Virus record (IMG/VR): IMGVR_UViG_648276670_000001
Location: 1 to 29,531 of that record
DNA from: a virus
Lineage: Duplodnaviria > Heunggongvirae > Uroviricota > Caudoviricetes
Strand: one strand, 5' to 3'
Length of the DNA stretch: 29,531 nt
Shown here piece after piece: positions 3,486-26,662 of the stretch. Within the stretch, counting starts at the first letter, position 1. Each line of letters opens with the position of its first letter. The notes below the pieces were generated by a model. The model was not told the origin of the DNA, did not search any database, and worked only from the letters and a program-made list of their open reading frames with translations. A program made the position numbers and the translations under genes.

Positions 3486-3712
3486 GACGCCTCCTTAAGG
3501 ATACCGGGGGTAACTTCTTTACCTATTGCAACCGATAGATCTCGCAAAATCCGATAAGTCAAACGACCGCGAGGTAGTTCACTTTTACCAGCCCAGCGAC
3601 TGACTGCCTGGGTGACTGTTCGTGGTTCATAGCCCGCGTTAAGCGCGAACTGGCGCAAGCTACTGCCTCGTTCAACCAGCCGTGCCCGAACTTGTTGTTT
3701 GTTCATATGCAC
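3482..3712 (-). CDS. ner: Ner-like small DNA-binding protein (Mu Ner/Nlp family), about 75 aa
   Basis: Size, position as first gene of the early operon divergent from the repressor, and HTH segment SLRQFALNAGYEPRTVTQAVSRW resembling Ner; start may be GTG 3710-3712 or ATG 3704-3706. Confidence 0.6.
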   Translation of the reverse strand: MHMNKQQVRARLVERGSSLRQFALNAGYEPRTVTQAVSRWAGKSELPRGRLTYRILRDLSVAIGKEVTPGILKEAS

Positions 3713-3794
3713 CGTGTTCCTGTTAGGTTATGATGTACTCTATTGGGTCTATTGTACACACCCAAATGAGTGTGTCAAATTGAGATATGTTCAA
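3713..3794. promoter_or_regulatory. Divergent early/repressor promoter-operator region
   Basis: AT-rich intergenic region between divergent ner-like and repressor genes; direct repeats TCTATTG at 3739-3745 and 3748-3754 flanked by TGTAC/GTACA, and ACACAC...GTGTGT inverted elements at 3756-3776. Confidence 0.4.
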
Positions 3795-4202
3795 ATGAGT
3801 ACAAAAGAGAGATTGCGTGAAGTGATGGATGCTAATGGCATGACAATAAAGGCATTATCTGACTTATCAAAAATTCCATATCGCTCACTTCAAAACTATT
3901 TGCGTGGAGAGAGAGAACCAAACGCAGAGGCTCTTGTTGCGCTAAGTGCCCATTTGGGTGTATCGATCGATTGGCTACTTACCGGTAAAGAACATATTCC
4001 ATCTAAAGAAATTGTTGCTGTACCAACACAACATCAATTCAGCCCGTCAGACCTTAAAATGCTTGAACTTCTAAACCAGTTAGATCCTGAGGTTCGGCGA
4101 GATCTCATGCGAGGCGCTGAAGAAAAACAGCGTGTGATTGAGATGGAAAAACAACTGAAGGAATTATCCGCAACGATTGAGCGGTTAAAAAATGTGGGTT
4201 AA
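3795..4202 (+). CDS. Prophage repressor-like XRE-family HTH protein, about 135 aa
   Basis: HTH motif TIKALSDLSKIPYRSLQNYLRGEREPNAEALVALSAHLGVSIDWLL plus C-terminal coiled coil; divergent from the early operon. The ORF-track start at TTG 3699 adds a hydrophobic extension that overlaps the operator region and is probably spurious. Confidence 0.7.
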   Translation: MSTKERLREVMDANGMTIKALSDLSKIPYRSLQNYLRGEREPNAEALVALSAHLGVSIDWLLTGKEHIPSKEIVAVPTQHQFSPSDLKMLELLNQLDPEVRRDLMRGAEEKQRVIEMEKQLKELSATIERLKNVG

Positions 4203-4272: not shown

Positions 4273-5280
4273 ATGTCTGAGCAGACCATTGAAGTTAAAC
4301 ACGTTGTAGTTCACATTTTAGACAAACAACAAAATGGAGACGCTTCTGAGAGATTGAGTCCTGAAGAAGGTCTAGTTACTGAAGCCTCTCAGCGCCTTAT
4401 AAACGATATTTGTGCAAAATATGCAGGACGCACAGGTAAAGGTTATGGCTATTTTGAAGGCGATACGGATAACTATCCTATGGAACGAATGGCTGGGGAC
4501 TTTCTCGAAGGTGTTGATGATTTCTACCAAAGTTCCTGCCGAATGATGCATCACCTGACGGAACGTTCTCAGCGAGAAAACATGGCTACTGGTGGTTATG
4601 TTCTTTTTGCAAATATCGTGATAGGACACAATGAACACCTGTTGATAGCTATTGTAAGCGCTACCATTGGGTCCACTGTCACAGATGATTTTAACATCCA
4701 AGATAGTACCTATCTTGATATTGCTAAGCTGCGTATGGCTGGGCGCATTGACTTAACCGCGTGGGAAAGTGGCGCAGAGCGCTATATCAGTTTTCTTAAG
4801 GGGCAAGGTAATGTTTCAAACTATTTTAAACAGTTCCTAGGCTGTAATGATGTCTTAATCGCCAAACGAGAGTCTGAAAAGTTACGTGACGTTTTAAAAG
4901 CATTTGCGGCAGAGAAAGGACTTGACGGCGCTGAAAAAGATGCATTTCTTAAGAGTGCGTTTGAACACTTACATGCACTAAGTAAGGCTGGTGAACCACT
5001 TAGTCTTGAAACCCTTGTTAATGCCATTTGGCCCCAGGCTCCCGAGGAGTTATCTGGTAAACTTGCTGCTGAAGAGTTGGAGTTATCGGATGGCTTCGTT
5101 CCTGATGGTCGAGTCATTCGGGCTCTGGTATCTTTTAAAGGCAAGTCTAAATATTGGGAACTTAAGTTTGACCGGGAAGGGAAAACTGAAGGCTATATTG
5201 ATTATGATCCGGAAACAAATATTATCACCCTACGTAATGTACCTGAAGAATTTAGGGAAATGTGGATGACTGAGGTTTAA
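4273..5280 (+). CDS. NdpA/YejK-family nucleoid-associated protein homolog, 335 aa
   Basis: AAGGTGGA Shine-Dalgarno 8 nt upstream; full-length resemblance to the YejK/NdpA family (GGYVLFANIV, TYLDIAKLRMAGRIDLTAWESGAERYISFLKGQG, C-terminal NIITLRNVPEEFRE); AT-rich codon usage unlike the flanking phage genes. Confidence 0.85.
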   Translation: MSEQTIEVKHVVVHILDKQQNGDASERLSPEEGLVTEASQRLINDICAKYAGRTGKGYGYFEGDTDNYPMERMAGDFLEGVDDFYQSSCRMMHHLTERSQRENMATGGYVLFANIVIGHNEHLLIAIVSATIGSTVTDDFNIQDSTYLDIAKLRMAGRIDLTAWESGAERYISFLKGQGNVSNYFKQFLGCNDVLIAKRESEKLRDVLKAFAAEKGLDGAEKDAFLKSAFEHLHALSKAGEPLSLETLVNAIWPQAPEELSGKLAAEELELSDGFVPDGRVIRALVSFKGKSKYWELKFDREGKTEGYIDYDPETNIITLRNVPEEFREMWMTEV

Positions 5281-5282
5281 TC

Positions 5283-6488
5283 GTGGCGATTTCATTTGAG
5301 ATGCTGACAGCTCTGTATCGTCGTATGGAATTCCAAGAGGGGTTTCGTGTCGGTTCGCTGTTGCTCTTAGATCAGTCCGATTGTGATCTGGTTGATACTT
5401 TGCTTGATGATCCTCGTGAATATGGTCTTTCTATTGATACAGGCACTATCGCTCCAGGTAACACGATCATCCTACGTGTGACGTCACCACGGAGTGGACT
5501 GGGACTTGTGTTTTCCACCCATGAAAAATTGCTAAATGCTCCAAAGCATCAGTGCCTTGAGCCAGCTAATTACTTCATCCTAGAAACAAAATTTCGTAAT
5601 GATGATGAAGATATCCCCGTTTTCATCAGCAACTACCGGAAGATTCTCGAGTTCGTTAACCTGCTAAAAGAGGCCGCGGCCTACTTTGATAACTCAACTT
5701 GTCAGTTAGTTTTTCTGAAAAAAGAAGTTATCAAGCTATTACCGCACTTCGCTGCAGAAAATGTACAAAATTTGCAAAGGGAGTATCTTGATAACCTTAT
5801 AGCTTGTTTCAATGATGATACCCATAAGGATCAGAAGCTAGATATTCTGATTGAAAGTATTCAAGCAGTTAGTGATGGAATTGATTCACCTCTAGTATTC
5901 GCTTATTTACTGGACAATATTCAGCGTCTGCATGAAAAGTTTCTGAAAGGGTATCGTATCTACTCTTCTGGATTCTCTTATGACAAAGTAATGGATCAAC
6001 TGCGTGCTGCAAAAGTCGAAGAAATGGGTAAAATCCACAAAGCGTTTTCAGATATCCAGAACCATATACTTGGCATTCCTGTTGCCTCTGTTATCGTAGC
6101 TACCCAATTCAAAGTGGCTACGAAATGGTCAGGCCAAGGGATAACAAACACAATAATTCTTCTGGGATGCATTTTTGCTGCAACGTTAATCTGGCTGGCA
6201 CTTTCGAACCAGATGCAATCTATAAAGGCCTTAGGCGAAGAAATTGAATACAAAGAAAAACAGATTAATAAGGAATATTCCTTCATTAAAGATGACGTGG
6301 CTGGTGTATTTAGCAGTATTTCTGCGCGACTAGACACGCAGAAACGTACGTTCTGGATTATACGTGGTGTTCTAGTTATGGGAATTATTACCGCTATCAC
6401 TGTTTATTTTTGGTACACAAAACCAGCCCTTGACTTCATGCAGTACTTGATTCACTGCATGAAGTCTTACTATTCGGTCAAAAGTTGA
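5283..6488 (+). CDS. Unknown 401-aa protein with two C-terminal transmembrane helices
   Basis: GTG start 2 nt after the NdpA-like stop with GAGG 7 nt upstream (translational coupling); hydrophobic helices ITNTIILLGCIFAATLIWLAL and FWIIRGVLVMGIITAITVYFWY; AT-rich; no catalytic motif recognised. Confidence 0.7.
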   Translation: MAISFEMLTALYRRMEFQEGFRVGSLLLLDQSDCDLVDTLLDDPREYGLSIDTGTIAPGNTIILRVTSPRSGLGLVFSTHEKLLNAPKHQCLEPANYFILETKFRNDDEDIPVFISNYRKILEFVNLLKEAAAYFDNSTCQLVFLKKEVIKLLPHFAAENVQNLQREYLDNLIACFNDDTHKDQKLDILIESIQAVSDGIDSPLVFAYLLDNIQRLHEKFLKGYRIYSSGFSYDKVMDQLRAAKVEEMGKIHKAFSDIQNHILGIPVASVIVATQFKVATKWSGQGITNTIILLGCIFAATLIWLALSNQMQSIKALGEEIEYKEKQINKEYSFIKDDVAGVFSSISARLDTQKRTFWIIRGVLVMGIITAITVYFWYTKPALDFMQYLIHCMKSYYSVKS

Positions 6489-7248
6489 GGATAATGAGTT
6501 CCTTCTTGCGACTGGATTTGCCAGTGATCTTGAGGTTGTAGCTGATATCAACCGACTGAATATTTAGACCGTTGAATGCCTGCCGCATTTCCGGGATATC
6601 GTTCACCGATATAATCATCTTCCCTTTGATCCTGCGTGCTAAATCTGCCATATGATCATAATTTTCTAGTCCGAACTCCACACCATAACCTTCCGTTCCC
6701 CAGTATGGAGGGTCACAGTAGAACAACGTATGCGGGCGATCATATCGTTCTATGCACTGTTGCCAGTCCATGTGTTCTATGACCGTTCTGGAAAGCCGCA
6801 GGTGTGCCGCTGACAGTTCTTCTTCAATACGCAGCAGGTTGAAGCGTGGCGGGGATATGGTGGAGGTACCAAAGCTGTGCTCCGCCACCTTGCCCCCAAA
6901 CGCCTGCTTCTGAAGGTAGTAGAACCGTGCTGCACGCTGGATATCCGTCAGTGTTTCTTCCGGGGTGATCTGCAGCCATTTGTAGATCTGCCGGCTGACC
7001 AGCGCCCATTTGAACTGGCGTACAAATTCTTCCAGATGATGTTTTACCACCCGATACAGGTTCACCAGCTCACCGTTGATATCATTAATGACTTCGATCT
7101 TGCCGGGTACCTTAAGAAAATAGAGCGCTGCTGCCCCACAAAACGGCTCCACATAACATTCATGCGCCGGAAACAGCGGCAGGATGTGTTTTGCAAGGCG
7201 GCGTTTGCCACCAATCCATGGAACGATGGGTAATGTCTGCATTTTCAT
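6478..7248 (-). CDS. dam: Dam-like N6-adenine DNA methyltransferase, 256 aa
   Basis: Motif I-like PFCGAAALYF and catalytic DPPY (YCDPPYWGTEGY) in the order typical of Dam-type enzymes; convergent with the upstream gene, 3' ends overlapping by 11 bp. Confidence 0.9.
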   Translation of the reverse strand: MKMQTLPIVPWIGGKRRLAKHILPLFPAHECYVEPFCGAAALYFLKVPGKIEVINDINGELVNLYRVVKHHLEEFVRQFKWALVSRQIYKWLQITPEETLTDIQRAARFYYLQKQAFGGKVAEHSFGTSTISPPRFNLLRIEEELSAAHLRLSRTVIEHMDWQQCIERYDRPHTLFYCDPPYWGTEGYGVEFGLENYDHMADLARRIKGKMIISVNDIPEMRQAFNGLNIQSVDISYNLKITGKSSRKKELIILNF

Positions 7249-7495
7249 AATCTGTAAGCCTTTTACAATTATAAAAAATATGGCAGGCTAGTCTGGTCTC
7301 GCGAGACTGACTGAACCTTGGTCGGCTCACAGCGCATTCCTGTGGGGCGATGGCCAGCCCGGTGTTCGGGTACCGGGCTGGTCGTTCTTTCAAAGCCATC
7401 ATGCAGTGCACGTTTACATCTTCACTATTAACGCTGTTTAAAATCCGTATCCCGCCACATTTGTGATGCTGTCTCCACCAAACGAGGAGACACAC
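7249..7495. promoter_or_regulatory. Divergent intergenic region between the methyltransferase and lysis genes, containing a perfect 12-bp palindrome
   Basis: GTCTCGCGAGAC at 7296-7307; a minus-strand TATAAT (plus 7268-7273) about 20 nt upstream of the methyltransferase ATG with a poor -35; GAGGAG Shine-Dalgarno at 7484-7489 for the downstream gene. Confidence 0.35.
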
Positions 7496-7846
7496 ATGAA
7501 AAACCTGAAAAAATTCATTCCCCCTGTTAAAAAACCTCGCCTCAGCGGCTGGCTGCTGACCTCAGTGCTGTTGCTGGGCATCATCGCTCTGGTCTCGCCA
7601 CAGCAGTTGCCTGTTGTGATCTACAAGCTGGCACTCATCACGCTGGCAGCAGTGCTGGGTTACTGGCTTGACCGTTCGCTCTTCCCCAAAGCCCGTCCCG
7701 GTCAGTACCTGAAACATGACAACAGACTGATGGCTGAAGGGCGTTTCCCTGTGCAGACCGGCCTTCACCTTGTATTTTCTGCTGCGTTAATCCGCCGTGC
7801 ACTGATTGTTGCAGCGGTCTGTCTGGCTGTGGCAACAGGACTGTGA
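7496..7846 (+). CDS. Small membrane protein, candidate holin, about 116 aa
   Basis: GAGGAG Shine-Dalgarno 6 nt upstream of ATG 7496; three hydrophobic segments; immediately precedes the endolysin gene with overlapping stop and start. Confidence 0.5.
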   Translation: MKNLKKFIPPVKKPRLSGWLLTSVLLLGIIALVSPQQLPVVIYKLALITLAAVLGYWLDRSLFPKARPGQYLKHDNRLMAEGRFPVQTGLHLVFSAALIRRALIVAAVCLAVATGL

Positions 7847-14282: not shown

Positions 14283-14741
14283 ATGGCTTCCGATAACCTG
14301 GTCAGTATCACCATTAACGATAAATCCCTGCGCCGGAGCCTCCGTGCGCTGGATCTGGCTGCCACAGACATGGAGCCCGCGATGCGCAAAATCGCCGGAA
14401 CCCTGCTGGCGGAAACACAGTTTAACTTTCTTGATGAGGGGCGTCCGGGGTGGATGCCCTCGCTGGCAGCGGAAGAACGTGACGGGCAGACACTGCAGGA
14501 TACCGGGCGTCTGATGGGGTCAGTATCAACCGACCATGACGACCGGCAGGCTGTTGTGGGGACCAACGTTGTTTACGGTGCCATTCACCAGTTCGGGGGT
14601 AAAACGGGGCGTAATGAGTCTGTTGAACTTCCGGCCCGCCCGTTCCTGCCGGTGACGGGGGATGGAGAACTACAGCCTGAAGTGGTAATCCCCATCCTCG
14701 ATACCATTGTCCGCCATCTTGAATCAGCGGCCCGTCGCTGA
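14283..14741 (+). CDS. Virion morphogenesis protein, Mu G-like, 152 aa
   Basis: Size and position after the F-like gene; tight spacing. Confidence 0.65.
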   Translation: MASDNLVSITINDKSLRRSLRALDLAATDMEPAMRKIAGTLLAETQFNFLDEGRPGWMPSLAAEERDGQTLQDTGRLMGSVSTDHDDRQAVVGTNVVYGAIHQFGGKTGRNESVELPARPFLPVTGDGELQPEVVIPILDTIVRHLESAARR

Positions 14742-14784
14742 GTTTTCTCTCTTCAGGTGGGTGATTTATCATTGCCAGCGAATG

Positions 14785-14827
14785 AGGGGCTGTATTACCT
14801 TTATAAAGGCTTTACAGCCTCTGTTTT
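14785..14827 (+). terminator. Imperfect palindromic hairpin followed by a T-run; candidate intrinsic terminator and/or regulatory site
   Basis: AGGGGCTGTA (14785-14794) pairs with TACAGCCTCT (14813-14822) around a perfect inner palindrome CCTTTATAAAGG (14798-14809); followed by GTTTTAT; lies in the 214-bp gap between the G-like and I-like genes. Confidence 0.4.
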
Positions 14828-14955
14828 ATAACCGCCTCCGGTTCACCGCATTGCTTTCCCTGTCCTTCTCCCCTGATGTTTTCTAAAGCAGATTAAAATC
14901 GCCGGGCCTGCATTTCTCACAAACTGTCTCCGACAACATAACGCGGGACAGCAAA

Positions 14956-16071
14956 ATGTCAGCCATTCACATTTTTAAAGCCGGTACTCATACCGATATG
15001 CACGGCAAAAAACTGCCGTTCACGCCAGACGATCTTGCCGCCTGCGTGAAAGCCTATGACCCGTCCGTCCATGAAGCACCACTCGTGATTGGTCATCCCA
15101 GAACGGAAGACCCGGCGTGGGGCTGGGTGAAAGCCCTGTCGCTCAGCGGCGTCGATCTGATGGCAGAGCCTGCCCAGCTGGACCCGCAGTTTGCTGAGAT
15201 GGTCACCGACGGACGATTCAAAAAAGTGTCCGCCTCTTTCTACCTCCCGGATTCACCGTCCAATCCGAAGCCCGGCGTGCTCTACCTTCGCCATGTGGGC
15301 TTTCTCGGGGCACAGCCACCTTCCGTCAAAGGGCTGAAACAGGTGTCCTTCAGTGAGCAGGAAGAAGGTGTGGTGGAGTTCGCCGACTGGCAGGCCATCA
15401 CGAATGCCTCCCTGTGGGGAAAGCTGCGCGATTTTCTGATCGCCCGCTTCAGTCTGGACGAGGCAGAAAAAGTCCTGCCGGAATGGCAGCTCAACAGTCT
15501 GCGCGAAGAGGCGTACCGCGACACACTGTCGCAGGATGCAGCAGGTGCACAATTCAGTGAGACAGGCCCGGGGCCGTCTTCCGCAAGTAACGAGGAATCA
15601 TCGATGACAAAAGAAGAGATTGAAGCCCTTCAGGAGGAGAACCGCCGCCTGAAGCAGCAGGCTGCTGATCGCGATGCGCGTGATGCACAGGTCAGACAGG
15701 AGCAACTGCATAAGGACAATGTGGCCTTTGCAGAAAAACTGGTCGCAGAGGGGCGTCTGGCTCCCCGCGCCTCCTCTGTGGTGGTTGCCCTGCTGGATGC
15801 CGTCGCCGGTGGCGACAAGCCGGTGGAGTTTGCTGAGGGGGAAAGCCGCACACCGCTGGCCACCGCCTTCCGTTCATTGCTCTCCGACGGGGAGCCGGTG
15901 ATGAACTTCGCCGAACAGGCCACAAAGGATCGTGTCGGCGACGTGGTGAAGGTGGATGTGGCGGAGTTTGCGGAAGCCGATCCTGAGCGTCTGGCCCTGC
16001 ATCAGAAAGCAGTGGCCCTGTCCAAAAAAGAAGGCATCAGCTATGAGGCTGCTGTCGCACGCTGCCTGTAA
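14956..16071 (+). CDS. Head protease/scaffold protein, Mu I-like, 371 aa
   Basis: Position directly upstream of the major capsid gene; coiled-coil C-terminal half (EEIEALQEENRRLKQQAADRDARDAQVRQEQL) typical of scaffolds. Confidence 0.7.
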   Translation: MSAIHIFKAGTHTDMHGKKLPFTPDDLAACVKAYDPSVHEAPLVIGHPRTEDPAWGWVKALSLSGVDLMAEPAQLDPQFAEMVTDGRFKKVSASFYLPDSPSNPKPGVLYLRHVGFLGAQPPSVKGLKQVSFSEQEEGVVEFADWQAITNASLWGKLRDFLIARFSLDEAEKVLPEWQLNSLREEAYRDTLSQDAAGAQFSETGPGPSSASNEESSMTKEEIEALQEENRRLKQQAADRDARDAQVRQEQLHKDNVAFAEKLVAEGRLAPRASSVVVALLDAVAGGDKPVEFAEGESRTPLATAFRSLLSDGEPVMNFAEQATKDRVGDVVKVDVAEFAEADPERLALHQKAVALSKKEGISYEAAVARCL

Positions 16072-18550: not shown

Positions 18551-19967
18551 CTATCTGCATGGCGTCGAAACCATTGAGGTGGAAAACGGAGCCCGCCCGG
18601 TTAAAACGGTGAAATCTGCCGTTATTGGCCTGATTGGTACCGCCCCGATGGGGGATGTCAATACGCTGGTACAGTGCCTGTCTGAGAAAGACGCTGCGGC
18701 ATTTGGCAGCCAGTTCACCGGCTTTACCATTCCGCAGGCGCTGGATGCGATTTATGACCATGGTGCAGGCACCGTTCTGGTCATTAACGTACTCGATCCG
18801 TCTGTGCATAAAACCGCTGTGGTCAGTGAGAATGTGTCGTTCGACAAGGCGACAGGCAGAGCCCGGCTGGCTAATCCGGTGGTCGCGCAGCTGGTACTGA
18901 AACCGGACAGCGACGGTCAGCCTTATGTTGAAGGTCAGGACTACTCGCTTGATGCACAGACCGGGGTGATTACTAACCTGGGTAAAAGCATTGCTGCAGA
19001 TGCAACGGTGAAGGCCAGCTATAACTATGCTGATCCGACCAAAGTCACCCCGGCTGATATCATCGGTACCGTTAACGCTGCAGGCAACCGTACCGGCATG
19101 AAGCTGCTTAACGACAGTTTTAACCTGTTTGGCTACTTCGCCAAAATCCTGATTGCTCCGGTATTCTGCACCCAGAACAGCGTCTCGGTTGAGCTTATCG
19201 CCATGGCTGAGAAACTGGGAGCAGTAACCTATATTGATGCGCCGGTTGGTACCACTTTTGCGCAGGCTCTGGCGGGACGTGGCCCGGAAGGCACCATTAA
19301 CTTTAATACCAGCTCTGACCGTGTCCGCCTGTGCTACCCGCATGTGAAGGTATATGACCCGGTGACGAACACGGAGCGTCTGGAGCCACTGAGCCAGCGT
19401 GCGGCGGGCCTGCGTGCCAAAGTCGACCTGGACAAAGGGTACTGGTGGTCATCCTCCAATCAGGAAATTCTGGGGATCACCGGCGTGGAGCGCCAGCTGT
19501 CGGCAATGATTGACGATCCGCAGAGCGAGGTGAACCTGCTTAACGAACAGGGGATCACCACGGTATTCAGCAGTTACGGCAGCGGCCTTCGTCTGTGGGG
19601 TAACCGGACGGCAGCATGGCCAACGGTCACCCATATGCGTAACTTTGAGAACGTTCGCCGCACCGGTGATGTGATCAACGAGTCCATTCGTTACTTCAGC
19701 CAGCAGTACATCGACATGCCGATTACTCAGGCGCTGATTGATGCACTGACGGAGTCGGTCAACGCCTACGGTCGCAAAATGACTGGTGATGGTGCGGTAC
19801 TGGGCTTCCGTTGCTGGTTTGATCCGGCCCGCAATCCGGAGACGGAGCTGGCCGCCGGGCACCTGTTGCTGAGCTACAAATATACGCCACCACCGCCGCT
19901 GGAGCGACTGACGTTTGAGACTGAAATCACCTCGGAATACCTGTTAACCCTGAAAGGGGGCAACTGA
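18540..19967 (+). CDS. Contractile tail sheath protein, 475 aa
   Basis: Size, position immediately before the tube gene, overall sheath-like sequence character. Confidence 0.85.
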   Translation: MAANYLHGVETIEVENGARPVKTVKSAVIGLIGTAPMGDVNTLVQCLSEKDAAAFGSQFTGFTIPQALDAIYDHGAGTVLVINVLDPSVHKTAVVSENVSFDKATGRARLANPVVAQLVLKPDSDGQPYVEGQDYSLDAQTGVITNLGKSIAADATVKASYNYADPTKVTPADIIGTVNAAGNRTGMKLLNDSFNLFGYFAKILIAPVFCTQNSVSVELIAMAEKLGAVTYIDAPVGTTFAQALAGRGPEGTINFNTSSDRVRLCYPHVKVYDPVTNTERLEPLSQRAAGLRAKVDLDKGYWWSSSNQEILGITGVERQLSAMIDDPQSEVNLLNEQGITTVFSSYGSGLRLWGNRTAAWPTVTHMRNFENVRRTGDVINESIRYFSQQYIDMPITQALIDALTESVNAYGRKMTGDGAVLGFRCWFDPARNPETELAAGHLLLSYKYTPPPPLERLTFETEITSEYLLTLKGGN

Positions 19968-20772: not shown

Positions 20773-20778
20773 CATCAC

Positions 20779-20800
20779 AGGGGCTCCGGCCCCTTCTTCT
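20779..20800 (+). terminator. Candidate weak intrinsic terminator
   Basis: Hairpin AGGGGC-TCCG-GCCCCT (20779-20794) followed by TCTTCTT. Confidence 0.3.
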
Positions 20801-20869
20801 TAATCCCCTTTAATATCCGTCACGTCCACCGCCAGACATACTGCTCTGAATTTACAAAGGAGTATGATC

Positions 20870-21205: not shown

Positions 21206-21287
21206 TGCCCTCGATACTGACGATCTGGAGATGTGGCTGGAGCAGGCTGAAGAGCAAATCAAAAGCGAGTTCGGCGACAATCAGTAA
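20870..21287 (+). CDS. Predicted frameshift-extended chaperone product (E+E-prime-like); shift to the +1 (equivalently -2) frame near 21194-21198
   Basis: ORF 21030-21287 overlaps the 3' end of the chaperone ORF; its tail EIDALDTDDLEMWLEQAEEQIKSEFGDNQ looks protein-like; run GGGGG at 21194-21198 lies two codons before the chaperone stop. Confidence 0.45.
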
Positions 21288-21300
21288 CAACGTATCACTT

Positions 21301-21323
21301 AACAGCCGCCAGTCGCGGCTGTT
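21301..21323 (+). other. Perfect 9-bp stem hairpin upstream of the tape-measure gene
   Basis: AACAGCCGC-CAGTC-GCGGCTGTT; a T7 run follows only about 30 nt downstream at 21353-21359, so not a canonical terminator. Confidence 0.3.
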
Positions 21324-21379
21324 CTGCATGGGTTTCAGACACTTCCCTTCCGTTTTTTTGCTTTCAGAGGATAGCCACC

Positions 21380-23845
21380 GTGGCCAGTGAATTTTCAGTC
21401 GGCGTCATTATTGGCGGCATTGTCGGGAGCAGCTTCCGCTCAGCCGTCAGTGGCACCCGACGCGCCCTTGATTCCCTTGGTGATACCTCCCGCCGTCTGC
21501 AGGAACGCCAGAATGCCTTAACCCGGGCAACAGAACGTTATGGTCAACTGGGTTCTTCCCGGATGCAGCATCTCAACAGCGAGTTGCTGCGGGTAAGCCG
21601 CACCATGGAGCAAATTGAACGTCAGCAGCGCCGTCTGTCAGCAGTATCAGCCACCGGTGATGCGTTGAAGGCTAACCGCCTGGCGCTCTATGGTCAGGGT
21701 GCAGAAACCTATGCTATTGGCAGAACGCTGGGCGCACCGGTCATGGCCTCGGTTAAACAATATGCCTCGTTTGAATCACAGTTGCGGGATATCAGTGTCA
21801 CAGGAGACCTGGATGCAAAACAGGAACGTGCAATTGGCCAGGCTATCAGACAGGCCTCGCTGAAGGTTAACCAACTGCAGGAGTCTCTGTTAGGGGGAGT
21901 CGGACAATTAGTTGCTGATGGTATGGCCCCCGAACGGGCAGCAACGTTTGCAGAGATGCTTGGAAAGACCGCTACAGCAACCAAAGCCGATATGACCGAC
22001 CTTGCCAAAATGACTTATGCCTTCAGCGATGCACTCAGAATCACTGATGCGAAAGAACTTGAACAGGCGTTTGGTATTGCGGCAACAGGAGCCAAACTTG
22101 GGTCATTTGAGCTGAAGGATATGGCAAAAGCATTACCCGGTATGGCTAAAGCCTTCGCTGCTCGTGGTATTTATGGAAAAGATGCGATTACCCAGATTGT
22201 TGCCAGTCTGGAGGTCGGTAAAGGTAGTGGCTCTGCAGAGGAAGCGGTCACCAATATGTCCAACTGGCTGGCAGCAATGGGCCGCGGAGATACCATCCAG
22301 AAATATGCTAAAGCCGGGGTGGATTACCAGGGGTCAATGCAGAATTACGTCGCTCAGGGTTTTTCGCAGTACGAAGCTTCACTGATGATTGCCAACCGTT
22401 TTATCGACAGTAAAGGCAAAGCGTTCTTGCAGCAATGGAAAGCTGCAGGAGCAAGAGGCGATCAGGAAGGTCAGCAGAAACTCATGGAGTCATTTGGTCT
22501 GGCTGAGGTCTTTACCGATATTCAGACTGTCAACCATTTACTGTCAATGCGACAGGGCTGGGATAAATACCTTTCCAGTAAGCAGGAAATGAATGCTCCG
22601 GCTGCAATTTCTACCCTGGATAAGGATGCTGCAAAGCAGAATGATACGCTTGAAGGTCGCTGGCGCAGAATGCAGATCGGCTTTAATGATTCTGCTATCA
22701 GCATCGGGCAATCCTTGCGTCCGGCTTTGCTCCAGTTGGGTGAAACATTTATTCCTTTAATGGACAGTGTTGGCAAATGGATAGCGGCAAATCCGCAGCT
22801 CGTCAGCAGCACCATAAAGGTTGTGGGCGCATTACTCGCTTTCAGGATGGCCACTATCGGTCTCAAGCTTGGGCTGAATCTCCTTCTTTCCCCCTTTGTA
22901 AGCGTCTGGAAAAATGCTGTTTTACTTCGGGCCAACTGGCTTCGTCTGACGCTCGCACTGGGGGAAGGCGGTAAACTCCGCTGGCTGGTGACAGGCTTTG
23001 GTGCTGTCGCCAGAGGAGCCAGAACACTGGGTGGTGTGCTCTCAGGGGGGCTGGTTCGCGGAATTATGAGCGCCGGGCGTGCCGTTCTCTGGATTGGCCG
23101 GGCGCTGCTGATGAATCCCATCGGTCTCGTTATCACCGCCGTCGCGGCAGCAGCTTACCTTATCTACCGCAACTGGGGCGCAGTCAGTAGCTGGTTTAAA
23201 CAGCGCTGGGCTGACATTCAGGAAGCCTTTAACGGCGGCATCGTGGGAACTGGTAAACTGCTGGTTAACTGGTCTCCGGCTGGTCTGCTTTATAAAGCCT
23301 TTGCGGCTGCGCTGAAATATCTCGGCGTTGATCTGCCGGCGAAATTCACCGACTTCGGTGGTCATCTTATTGACGGGTTGATAAATGGCATCAGAAACAA
23401 ATGGGCGTCACTCAAAACCAGCGTAACCGGAATGGGTGACAGCATCAGTGACTGGTTCAGCGAAAAGCTGGGCATCCATTCACCGAGTCGCGTGTTTATG
23501 GGCTTTGGTGACAATATCGCGCAGGGTGCCGCCATTGGCCTGCAACGGACCACTCCGCTTGCTGCACTGGCCGGGCAGCGCCTGGCCGCTGAAATGACAC
23601 CGGATGTTCCCCGTATCCCGTCGCCGGAAATCATGGCTGCCGGATATTCAGGCCGTGGTGCAACGGCAACTGGCGGTGGAGCGTCTGGCGGTATCCAGGT
23701 CAGCTTTAATCCTCAGTTTTTCCTCAATGGTAAGGAAACCGCAGCGCCTGCCGGGCTGACTGGTGCCCTGAATATGAGCCTGCATGAGCTGGAAAAAATG
23801 CTGGAGCGTCTGCTGGCTCAGAAACAACGTAAGGAGTACAGCTGA
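21380..23845 (+). CDS. Tail tape measure protein, 821 aa
   Basis: GTG start with AGAGGA Shine-Dalgarno; large helical protein with a central hydrophobic segment, directly downstream of the chaperone pair. Confidence 0.8.
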   Translation: MASEFSVGVIIGGIVGSSFRSAVSGTRRALDSLGDTSRRLQERQNALTRATERYGQLGSSRMQHLNSELLRVSRTMEQIERQQRRLSAVSATGDALKANRLALYGQGAETYAIGRTLGAPVMASVKQYASFESQLRDISVTGDLDAKQERAIGQAIRQASLKVNQLQESLLGGVGQLVADGMAPERAATFAEMLGKTATATKADMTDLAKMTYAFSDALRITDAKELEQAFGIAATGAKLGSFELKDMAKALPGMAKAFAARGIYGKDAITQIVASLEVGKGSGSAEEAVTNMSNWLAAMGRGDTIQKYAKAGVDYQGSMQNYVAQGFSQYEASLMIANRFIDSKGKAFLQQWKAAGARGDQEGQQKLMESFGLAEVFTDIQTVNHLLSMRQGWDKYLSSKQEMNAPAAISTLDKDAAKQNDTLEGRWRRMQIGFNDSAISIGQSLRPALLQLGETFIPLMDSVGKWIAANPQLVSSTIKVVGALLAFRMATIGLKLGLNLLLSPFVSVWKNAVLLRANWLRLTLALGEGGKLRWLVTGFGAVARGARTLGGVLSGGLVRGIMSAGRAVLWIGRALLMNPIGLVITAVAAAAYLIYRNWGAVSSWFKQRWADIQEAFNGGIVGTGKLLVNWSPAGLLYKAFAAALKYLGVDLPAKFTDFGGHLIDGLINGIRNKWASLKTSVTGMGDSISDWFSEKLGIHSPSRVFMGFGDNIAQGAAIGLQRTTPLAALAGQRLAAEMTPDVPRIPSPEIMAAGYSGRGATATGGGASGGIQVSFNPQFFLNGKETAAPAGLTGALNMSLHELEKMLERLLAQKQRKEYS

Positions 23846-26606: not shown

Positions 26607-26662
26607 ACCTTCTTAAACGCCTTTAATATCGGCGCTTACTTCCCGGGGGCAATACTGCCTCC

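Follow-up and report, generated by a model that had tools for sequence, protein, structure and literature searches.

The window (the whole stretch of DNA analysed here, 29,531 nucleotides) represents the larger part of a BcepMu-type, Mu-like transposable prophage of E. coli, and shares 99% identity with Escherichia phage PhiKM (Bcepmuvirus) over the region. Prophages of this type occur in 640 of 5,426 complete E. coli genomes (∼12%), including ST131 strains, and their relatives are spread over the Gamma- and Betaproteobacteria. A complete copy is present in E. coli A31, where it is inserted in rlmI. The early genes, among them the rve transposase, face leftward and are followed by the repressor and a cargo region, after which the + strand carries every remaining gene of the window. 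These are, in order, the holin, transglycosylase, small terminase (Mu gp27-like), large terminase, Mu portal, Mu F and G-like genes, then a gap, and beyond it the I-like, T-like and P2-like tail genes (Table 1). The G-like virion morphogenesis gene is the last of the upstream late operon, and its PhiKM counterpart (99% identical) is annotated as Mup31/G. The I-like (protease/scaffold) gene is the first of the head operon; a Pfam search with it gave no match. A gene for a Mor-family activator is found at the far left end of the A31 prophage, ∼4.3 kb beyond the point where the window starts, and its BcepMu counterpart is gp01.

Table 1. Positions of genes, sequence elements and predicted transcription signals in the window.
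Feature	Position	Strand	Basis
rve transposase (early genes)	482–2251	leftward	
Sister late promoter before holin: TTAACGCTGTTTAAAATC ... GATGCTGTCTCC	7428–7476	+	pattern search
Holin	7463–7846	+	
Mu G-like virion morphogenesis gene	14283–14741	+	Pfam Phage_tail_S, 6e-23
Small terminator-like hairpin TCAGCGG-CCCG-TCGCTGA, then GTTTTCTCTCTTC	14724–14753	+	terminator scan
Conserved block GGGTGATTTATCATTGCC; reverse complement contains GATAAATCAC	14758–14775	.	gap alignment
Imperfect palindrome; outer stem AGGGGCTGTA/TACAGCCTCT, inner stem CCTT/AAGG	14785–14822	+	repeat search, RNA fold
Invariant core TTTATAAAG, within the perfect palindrome at 14798–14809	14800–14808	.	46 distinct flanking contexts
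T-rich tail GTTTTATAA, directly 3' of hairpin	14823–14831	+	sequence, terminator scan
Predicted Mor/C-family activator box CTAA-AGCAGA-TTAA-AATC	14883–14900	+	pattern search, relatives
Predicted −10 CAAACT, without −35	14920–14925	+	alignment with Mu late promoters; identical to Mu P_I −10
Mu I-like (protease/scaffold) gene	14956–16071	+	position, synteny with Mu and BcepMu gp32
Sister late promoter before tail-chaperone/tape-measure genes	20800–20848	+	pattern search
Sister late promoter before baseplate gp25/W-like gene	26613–26661	+	pattern search

The cargo region (4273–7248), between the repressor and the lysis genes, encodes a homologue of the NA37/YejK-family 37-kDa nucleoid-associated protein (1e-80), a 401-amino-acid protein without a Pfam match and, on the opposite strand, a Dam-type methylase; the A31 prophage has other genes in its place. 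The interval separating the Dam methylase gene from the first late promoter (7242–7393) holds a sigma-70-like promoter (TTTTCA-16-TACAAT, 7242–7269, + strand) and, ∼80 nt past it, a very strong hairpin (7350–7385; dG −27.5, z −7) that is followed by TCGTTCTTTC. The pair could represent a small RNA, or a terminator of the cargo region.

The gap between the G-like and I-like genes

The G-like reading frame stops (TGA) at 14741 and the I-like frame starts at 14956, leaving a gap of 214 bp. As had been said in the original prediction, this is the largest gap of the structural cluster; the others are 91 bp (20773–20863) and 174 bp (21206–21379), the latter probably holding a frameshifted chaperone. 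In 82 related viral loci the gap is 191–215 bp long, though the G protein drops to 44% identity, and the core of the palindrome is kept across the same loci. Because gap length and palindrome core are both conserved, the palindrome is more than a chance occurrence. An alignment of 57 distinct gaps from relatives shows conserved blocks with variable sequence between them: the block at 14758–14775, the extended motif around the core, CCTTTATAAAGGCTTTACAGCC (14798–14819), then TTTTCTAAAGCAGATTAAAA (14879–14898) and finally CACAAACTGTC...GGGACAGCAAAATG (14918–14958). Taken as a whole, the 214 nt are barely more structured than shuffled sequence (z −1.94).

The annotated 196-bp gap between G and I of Mu holds a gyrase cut site, then a predicted terminator and lastly the C-dependent promoter P_I, and it resembles the gap of the window in several respects. 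The two flanking genes are the same, the sizes are comparable (196 vs 214 bp), both lie near the centre of the genome, and each has a predicted terminator hairpin (−19.8 kcal/mol in Mu, −19.6 kcal/mol here) followed by GTTTTAT. The left halves, in contrast, lack sequence similarity, nothing in the Mu hairpin corresponds to the invariant TTTATAAAG, and no gyrase site is predicted at the palindrome, unlike the strong gyrase site of Mu.

The stem-loop of the small terminator-like hairpin at the end of G (14724–14741) overlaps the stop codon and is followed by GTTTTCTCTC. This hairpin is kept in close relatives, is partly coding, and is unrecognisable in distant lineages. Just past the stop codon, CUCUUCA (14747–14753) can pair with UGAGGGG (14783–14789), which overlaps the left arm of the palindrome, so that this pairing and the palindrome hairpin exclude each other. 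A ribosome halted at the G stop codon would cover the CUCUUCA arm. The two pairings could form an attenuation-like arrangement, or be a coincidence.

The reverse complement of the block at 14758–14775 matches the ends of the prophage: GATAAATCAC is found exactly elsewhere only in the terminal repeats there, and the 41-kb A31 locus has three exact copies of GATAAATNAC, in both terminal repeats (647–656 and 38570–38579) and in the gap between G and I. The end-repeat family GAGATAAAT / GCGATATTT is also present at the ends of BcepMu. A central transposase site in this block was considered and rejected: the ends are unchanged in phages where the block differs, and there is no match in the BcepMu gap. 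The meaning of the GATAAATCAC match is doubtful.

Four betaproteobacterial and other distant relatives (L118, L119, L285 and L363) have an extra small gene between the core and the I homologue, its ribosome-binding site lying 30–95 nt past the core. A small-ORF reading, suggested by 41 codons annotated in KP12, was rejected, a frame being open through the core in only 7 of 17 lineages and in 0 of the betaproteobacterial ones.

The palindrome hairpin and its invariant core

The two arms of the palindrome (14785–14803 and 14804–14822) are 19 nt each, directly adjacent, and 79% complementary in the repeat search. They are built around a perfect 12-bp palindrome, CCTTTATAAAGG (14798–14809), which has no second exact copy in the window. 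Folding of the RNA from 14783 to 14824 gives −19.6 kcal/mol (z −3.83, 1 of 200 shuffles being as stable), with a 10-bp outer stem, a 3×3 internal loop, a 4-bp inner stem and a UAUA loop, 14 pairs in all. The tail directly 3' of the stem (GUUUUAUAA, 5 U in 8) begins GTTTTAT. Both the hairpin and the T-run of the original prediction are thus confirmed; as a kind of element the hairpin is ordinary. It lies on the sense strand, 44 nt past the G stop codon and 60 nt before the next promoter box.

Conservation is uneven along this element. Across 27 lineages the outer stem co-varies (score 0.263 vs 0.157 for shuffles, 0/500, and ≤0.14 for slid controls), with pairs 13–16/41–44 alternating among GC, CG and UA, and the arms reading GGCTGTA/TACAGCC in the window, CCCGTA/TACGGG in BcepMu and GCCATA/TATGGC in L118. 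A well-formed long hairpin is confined to the window, KP12, L055 and L063 types; in L118, L124 and BcepMu a register shift of +1 is required, and in six other lineages, which still keep the core, the long hairpin is absent. Where the long palindrome is missing, another hairpin, GC-rich and of −14 to −27 kcal/mol, has its end precisely at the core, TTTATAAA forming its T-rich tail, and a terminator-like arrangement therefore recurs in most lineages. For the L068, L073 and L110 types, the terminator scan detected no such arrangement at the core. Types L063 and L055 retain the T-run; in the KP12 (CGCTTTGC, CGCUUUGC) and L073 types it is weak or absent. Conservation of the long palindrome's left arm breaks down in the large group of the L048 type, and so it is the core and its right flank, rather than the entire hairpin, that are most conserved. 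The stem pairs across lineages include 26 G-U pairs and 23 A-C mismatches, which is no difference, and therefore nothing here indicates that the structure acts as RNA rather than as DNA. An Rfam search gave no match better than E = 2.7.

The nine core bases are unchanged in gamma- and betaproteobacterial relatives that together give 46 distinct flanking contexts. They were surveyed with one genome per species, using an alignment of the G protein, and the exact 9-mer is found 48–73 nt past the G stop codon in nearly all relatives with a G identity of at least ∼41%. The hosts of these relatives are Escherichia, Pantoea, Erwinia, Dickeya, Pectobacterium, Photorhabdus and Xenorhabdus, as well as Chromobacterium, Pandoraea, Dechloromonas and a Neisseriaceae bacterium, so that the core is unchanged from Enterobacterales to Betaproteobacteria. 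Two exceptions among these relatives have other DNA after G, and the motif is absent from FluMu-like and Helicobacter relatives. In BcepMu (63% G+C) the core occurs once, at 18739 of 36748 (51.0%), and contains the sole TATAAA of that genome; in the complete A31 prophage it is at ∼52%, and the Mu gyrase site is at 48.7%. The same nine bases form the hairpin apex in some lineages and lie in the T-rich tail of another hairpin elsewhere, a pattern of conservation that suggests a sequence-specific reader. A collection-wide scan for the longer TTTATAAAGGCTTTA gave 119 matches, only 14 of them beside a G-like gene, and the others are most likely chance occurrences of an AT-rich 15-mer.

Predicted late promoters with Mor/C-type architecture

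The element at 14883–14931, 60–110 bp downstream of the palindrome hairpin, is well supported by sequence comparison as the late promoter of the head operon, with the architecture of Mor/C promoters. In these the dyad extends from −51 to −36, is centred at −43.5, and there is no −35 (PMC4287176). In the window, the dyad TAA-N6-TTA of the predicted box is centred 30.5 nt upstream of the −10, or at about −43, and CAAACT lies 30 nt before the I-like start codon (32 nt in Mu), giving a predicted transcript start near 14932. The four late promoters of Mu can be aligned without gaps, with −10 sequences TAGACT, CAAACT, TATCCT and TAAGAT and the C site ∼31 bp upstream. Like the element, Mu P_I lacks a −35, has CAAACT at ∼30 nt from the start codon, and carries a dyad ∼43 bp ahead of the transcript start. 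Upstream of the I genes of relatives, NTAA-N6-TTAA occurs at a fixed distance from the start codon in all 40 of the 40 distinct regions. The box spacers vary (AGCAGA, TGGGGG, ACGCCA, AGCGGA), as do the −10 sequences (CAGACT, CACACT, GACACT, CAACAT), and A2 and T6 of the −10 are always retained.

Searching the window with parts of this element located the three sister promoters of Table 1. All four promoters align ungapped as TTAA-N6-TTAA(A/T)ATC, ∼19 nt, and cAnACT, without a −35, and each precedes a late operon. With up to one mismatch, YTAANNNNNNTTAAWATC has 4 matches in the window (0.12 expected), all on the + strand and all before late operons. The motif was derived from those same four sites, which makes the count of four circular, and the informative result is that there is no other match in the window. 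In the A31 prophage it likewise finds only the four late-promoter sites, and on the + strand of BcepMu the pattern occurs only twice, before the holin gene and before the equivalent of I. At the fourth promoter, the −10 (AATACT, 26651–26656) ends just 6 nt before the annotated start codon (26663), so that either the mRNA downstream is leaderless or the true start codon is further downstream.

The Mor-family protein of the phage presumably acts at the box at 14883–14900. Mu uses Mor plus C, in contrast to the one Mor-family gene of this phage type, and the half-site sequences also differ, the C half-site of Mu being CATAACCCC (TTAT-N6-ATAA at Pmom) as opposed to the TTAA-N6-TTAA box. With these reservations, it is the element at 14883–14931, and not the palindrome, that is like the Mor/C promoters of Mu (Pm, Plys, P_I, P_P, Pmom). 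The original prediction was therefore right in viewing the gap as the counterpart of the Mu G–I gap with a Mu-type late promoter, and mistaken in offering the palindrome as the site of the late activator, the box and −10 being placed 60–110 bp downstream instead. The literature that was searched contained no description of late transcription signals for this prophage type. The resulting map places a terminator-like element at the boundary of the packaging and head operons and comprises four late promoters predicted to depend on an activator; it corrects where the activator site should be looked for.

Possible functions of the palindrome

The best explanation, and one we hold at about even odds, is that the palindrome hairpin is an intrinsic (Rho-independent) terminator of the late operon that runs from the lysis genes to G. 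The first late transcription unit (holin, lysis, terminase, portal, F, G) would start at the late promoter at 7428 and be closed by the stem-loop of the palindrome, where RNA polymerase presumably stops. Transcription of the head genes would restart ∼100 bp further on from the separate activator-dependent promoter (14883–14900 and 14920–14925), on which the Mor-family protein from the left end of the phage probably acts. In the window, the palindrome encodes a stable, G+C-containing stem-loop with a T-run behind it, on the sense strand and where an operon ends; its outer stem co-varies, as in intrinsic terminators, and a separate promoter follows. Elsewhere in the window a hairpin with a T-run also precedes the late promoters at 7428 and 20800, the latter having a clean terminator hairpin (20779–20792, dG −12.8) directly before it, but not the one at 26613. 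BcepMu has a 13-bp stem (−16.1 kcal/mol) followed by UUUGGUU between G and the I promoter. In relatives with an extra gene after G, the core remains beside the G end, or behind a separate terminator, and does not travel with the promoter of I.

The loops of terminators usually show no sequence conservation. Here, unlike in a plain terminator, the apex is the most conserved part of the gap, far more so than the stem, which is the variable part; the same bases serve as loop or, in some lineages, as the tail behind a different hairpin; many close relatives have a poor T-run, and six lineages lack the long hairpin. The part of the original prediction that proposed a terminator is plausible. The terminator model leaves the invariance of the nine bases at the tip of the hairpin, over two bacterial classes, unaccounted for.

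A DNA-level role has to be considered because the Mu G–I gap holds a strong gyrase site, which the original prediction had missed. The core and its flanking symmetry might, with a low but appreciable probability, be a cis-acting DNA site at the centre of a transposable genome, the functional counterpart of the strong gyrase site of Mu. Such a site could be bound by gyrase or by a nucleoid protein (HU or IHF type), or be extruded as an AT-centred cruciform, and would fix the apex of a supercoiled loop and help to unite the prophage ends for transposition. A strong gyrase site lies between G and I in Mu and FluMu (PMC2628397), and a central site has been proposed for the Pseudomonas phage Ab30 (PMC5977238). 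In the annotation of Mu the gyrase cut site is 20 bp past the G stop codon, in the equivalent gap, and the locations near the genome centre agree in BcepMu, A31 and Mu. The core is invariant over gamma- and betaproteobacterial hosts whatever the hairpin context, which is typical of a DNA site recognised by a protein, and it accounts for the only TATAAA in the G+C-rich BcepMu genome. The central position, on the other side, is also explained by shared gene order alone. Oram and Pato reportedly found in 2004 that the central fragment of a Mu-like prophage of Salmonella Typhi, which we take to be of the BcepMu type, is cleaved by gyrase and is no substitute for the Mu site.

To examine the gyrase form of this reading, a matrix was rebuilt from 200 kb of W3110 sequence and 416 published cleavage sites listed in the supplement of PMC6379681. 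With a cross-validated r of 0.8 the matrix is crude; it recovers the Mu gyrase site at the annotated cut, at rank 7 of 36,600, a site that was missed (rank 1835) when scoring against the published 133-bp gyrase consensus. It gives no high score for the 130-bp gyrase binding and cleavage motif at the palindrome, and predicts no site centred there in either the window or BcepMu. The best nearby site (14703–14705, inside G) ranks 20–138 in the window, and above 100 in BcepMu. Over 20 lineages the best site at the junction ranks at about chance (median ∼12 of 5,300, with a 350-bp search window). This negative result is a weak one because the rebuilt matrix is crude. For IHF (consensus WATCAANNNNTTR), comparison by eye showed that TATAAAGGCTTTA fits 12 of 13 positions and misses the conserved C, and the TTR part of this flank is lost in the L083 and L120 types; neither the IHF nor the Fis consensus was matched in full by eye, and both sites were rejected.

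A narrower version has TTTATAAAG and its symmetric flanks as a new central cis-acting DNA site of BcepMu-type phages that does the job of the Mu gyrase site, which we regard as improbable. Instead of a gyrase motif, it would rely on a nucleoid-protein site or on a palindrome or cruciform centred on AT, and would loop the prophage for synapsis of its ends; this suggestion is to be held just as loosely. An invariant 9-base AT palindrome at the genome centre raises the question of whether a central site is required by transposable phages besides Mu as well, and what kind of site it would be.

It is improbable, to a greater degree, that the hairpin is an element of RNA processing or stability within a read-through late mRNA, either a site for RNase III or RNase E or a protective 3' hairpin. 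In that role it would let packaging and head proteins be made in independent amounts, and a protein would read the conserved apex. The long, imperfect stem with internal loops, as in the RNase III sites of phage T7, the AU-rich apex, the conservation of that apex above a co-varying stem, and the weak T-run of many relatives are all consistent with it. Against it, several lineages keep the core without the hairpin, G-U pairs are not in excess of A-C, and there is no Rfam match.

The palindrome is very unlikely to be a site of the late activator (Mor/C family), whether an upstream site of the head promoter or a decoy, because a separate promoter with Mor/C architecture is present at 14883–14925. 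Its half-sites do resemble parts of the box, TAAAG(C/G) being found at 14883 and, on the minus strand, at 20800 and 26613, and in BcepMu the core region GTAAAGTTTTATAAAGG and the box GTAAAGCCGATTAAAAG have GTAAAG-N5-TAAA in common. However, the spacing of the half-sites is unlike TTAA-N6-TTAA, YTAANNNNNNTTAAWATC with one mismatch does not match the palindrome, and there is no conserved −10 at the required ∼30–31 bp on either strand, the CCTCCG that lies 31 bp downstream of the palindrome centre being unconserved. The distance from the palindrome to the true box also changes from 72 to 92 bp between lineages, and a gene inserted before I leaves the core next to G.

Least likely of all, and hardly to be expected, is that TATAAA of the core is the −10 of a weak constitutive promoter, for inserted accessory genes or an antisense RNA. 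Three lineages (L118, L119 and L285) do have a ribosome-binding site and start codon 30–95 nt past the core, and in betaproteobacterial lineages there is a weak CTGAnn 16–17 bp upstream of it. The final T of −10 hexamers is nearly invariant, but TATAAA ends without it, neither a conserved −35 nor a TG extension is present, the promoter scan was negative at the core, and most lineages have no gene between the core and the activator-dependent promoter. A sigma-70 promoter at the core was accordingly rejected, with no −35 and no final T. An operator-like site was also rejected, as no similar motif occurs in the early control region (3690–3900).

The 10-bp palindrome CTTTATAAAG has a second exact copy with a similar right flank (GCTTTATAAAGCCTTTGCGG) in the tape-measure gene (23287–23306), the chance expectation for an exact 10-mer being 0.03 in the window.
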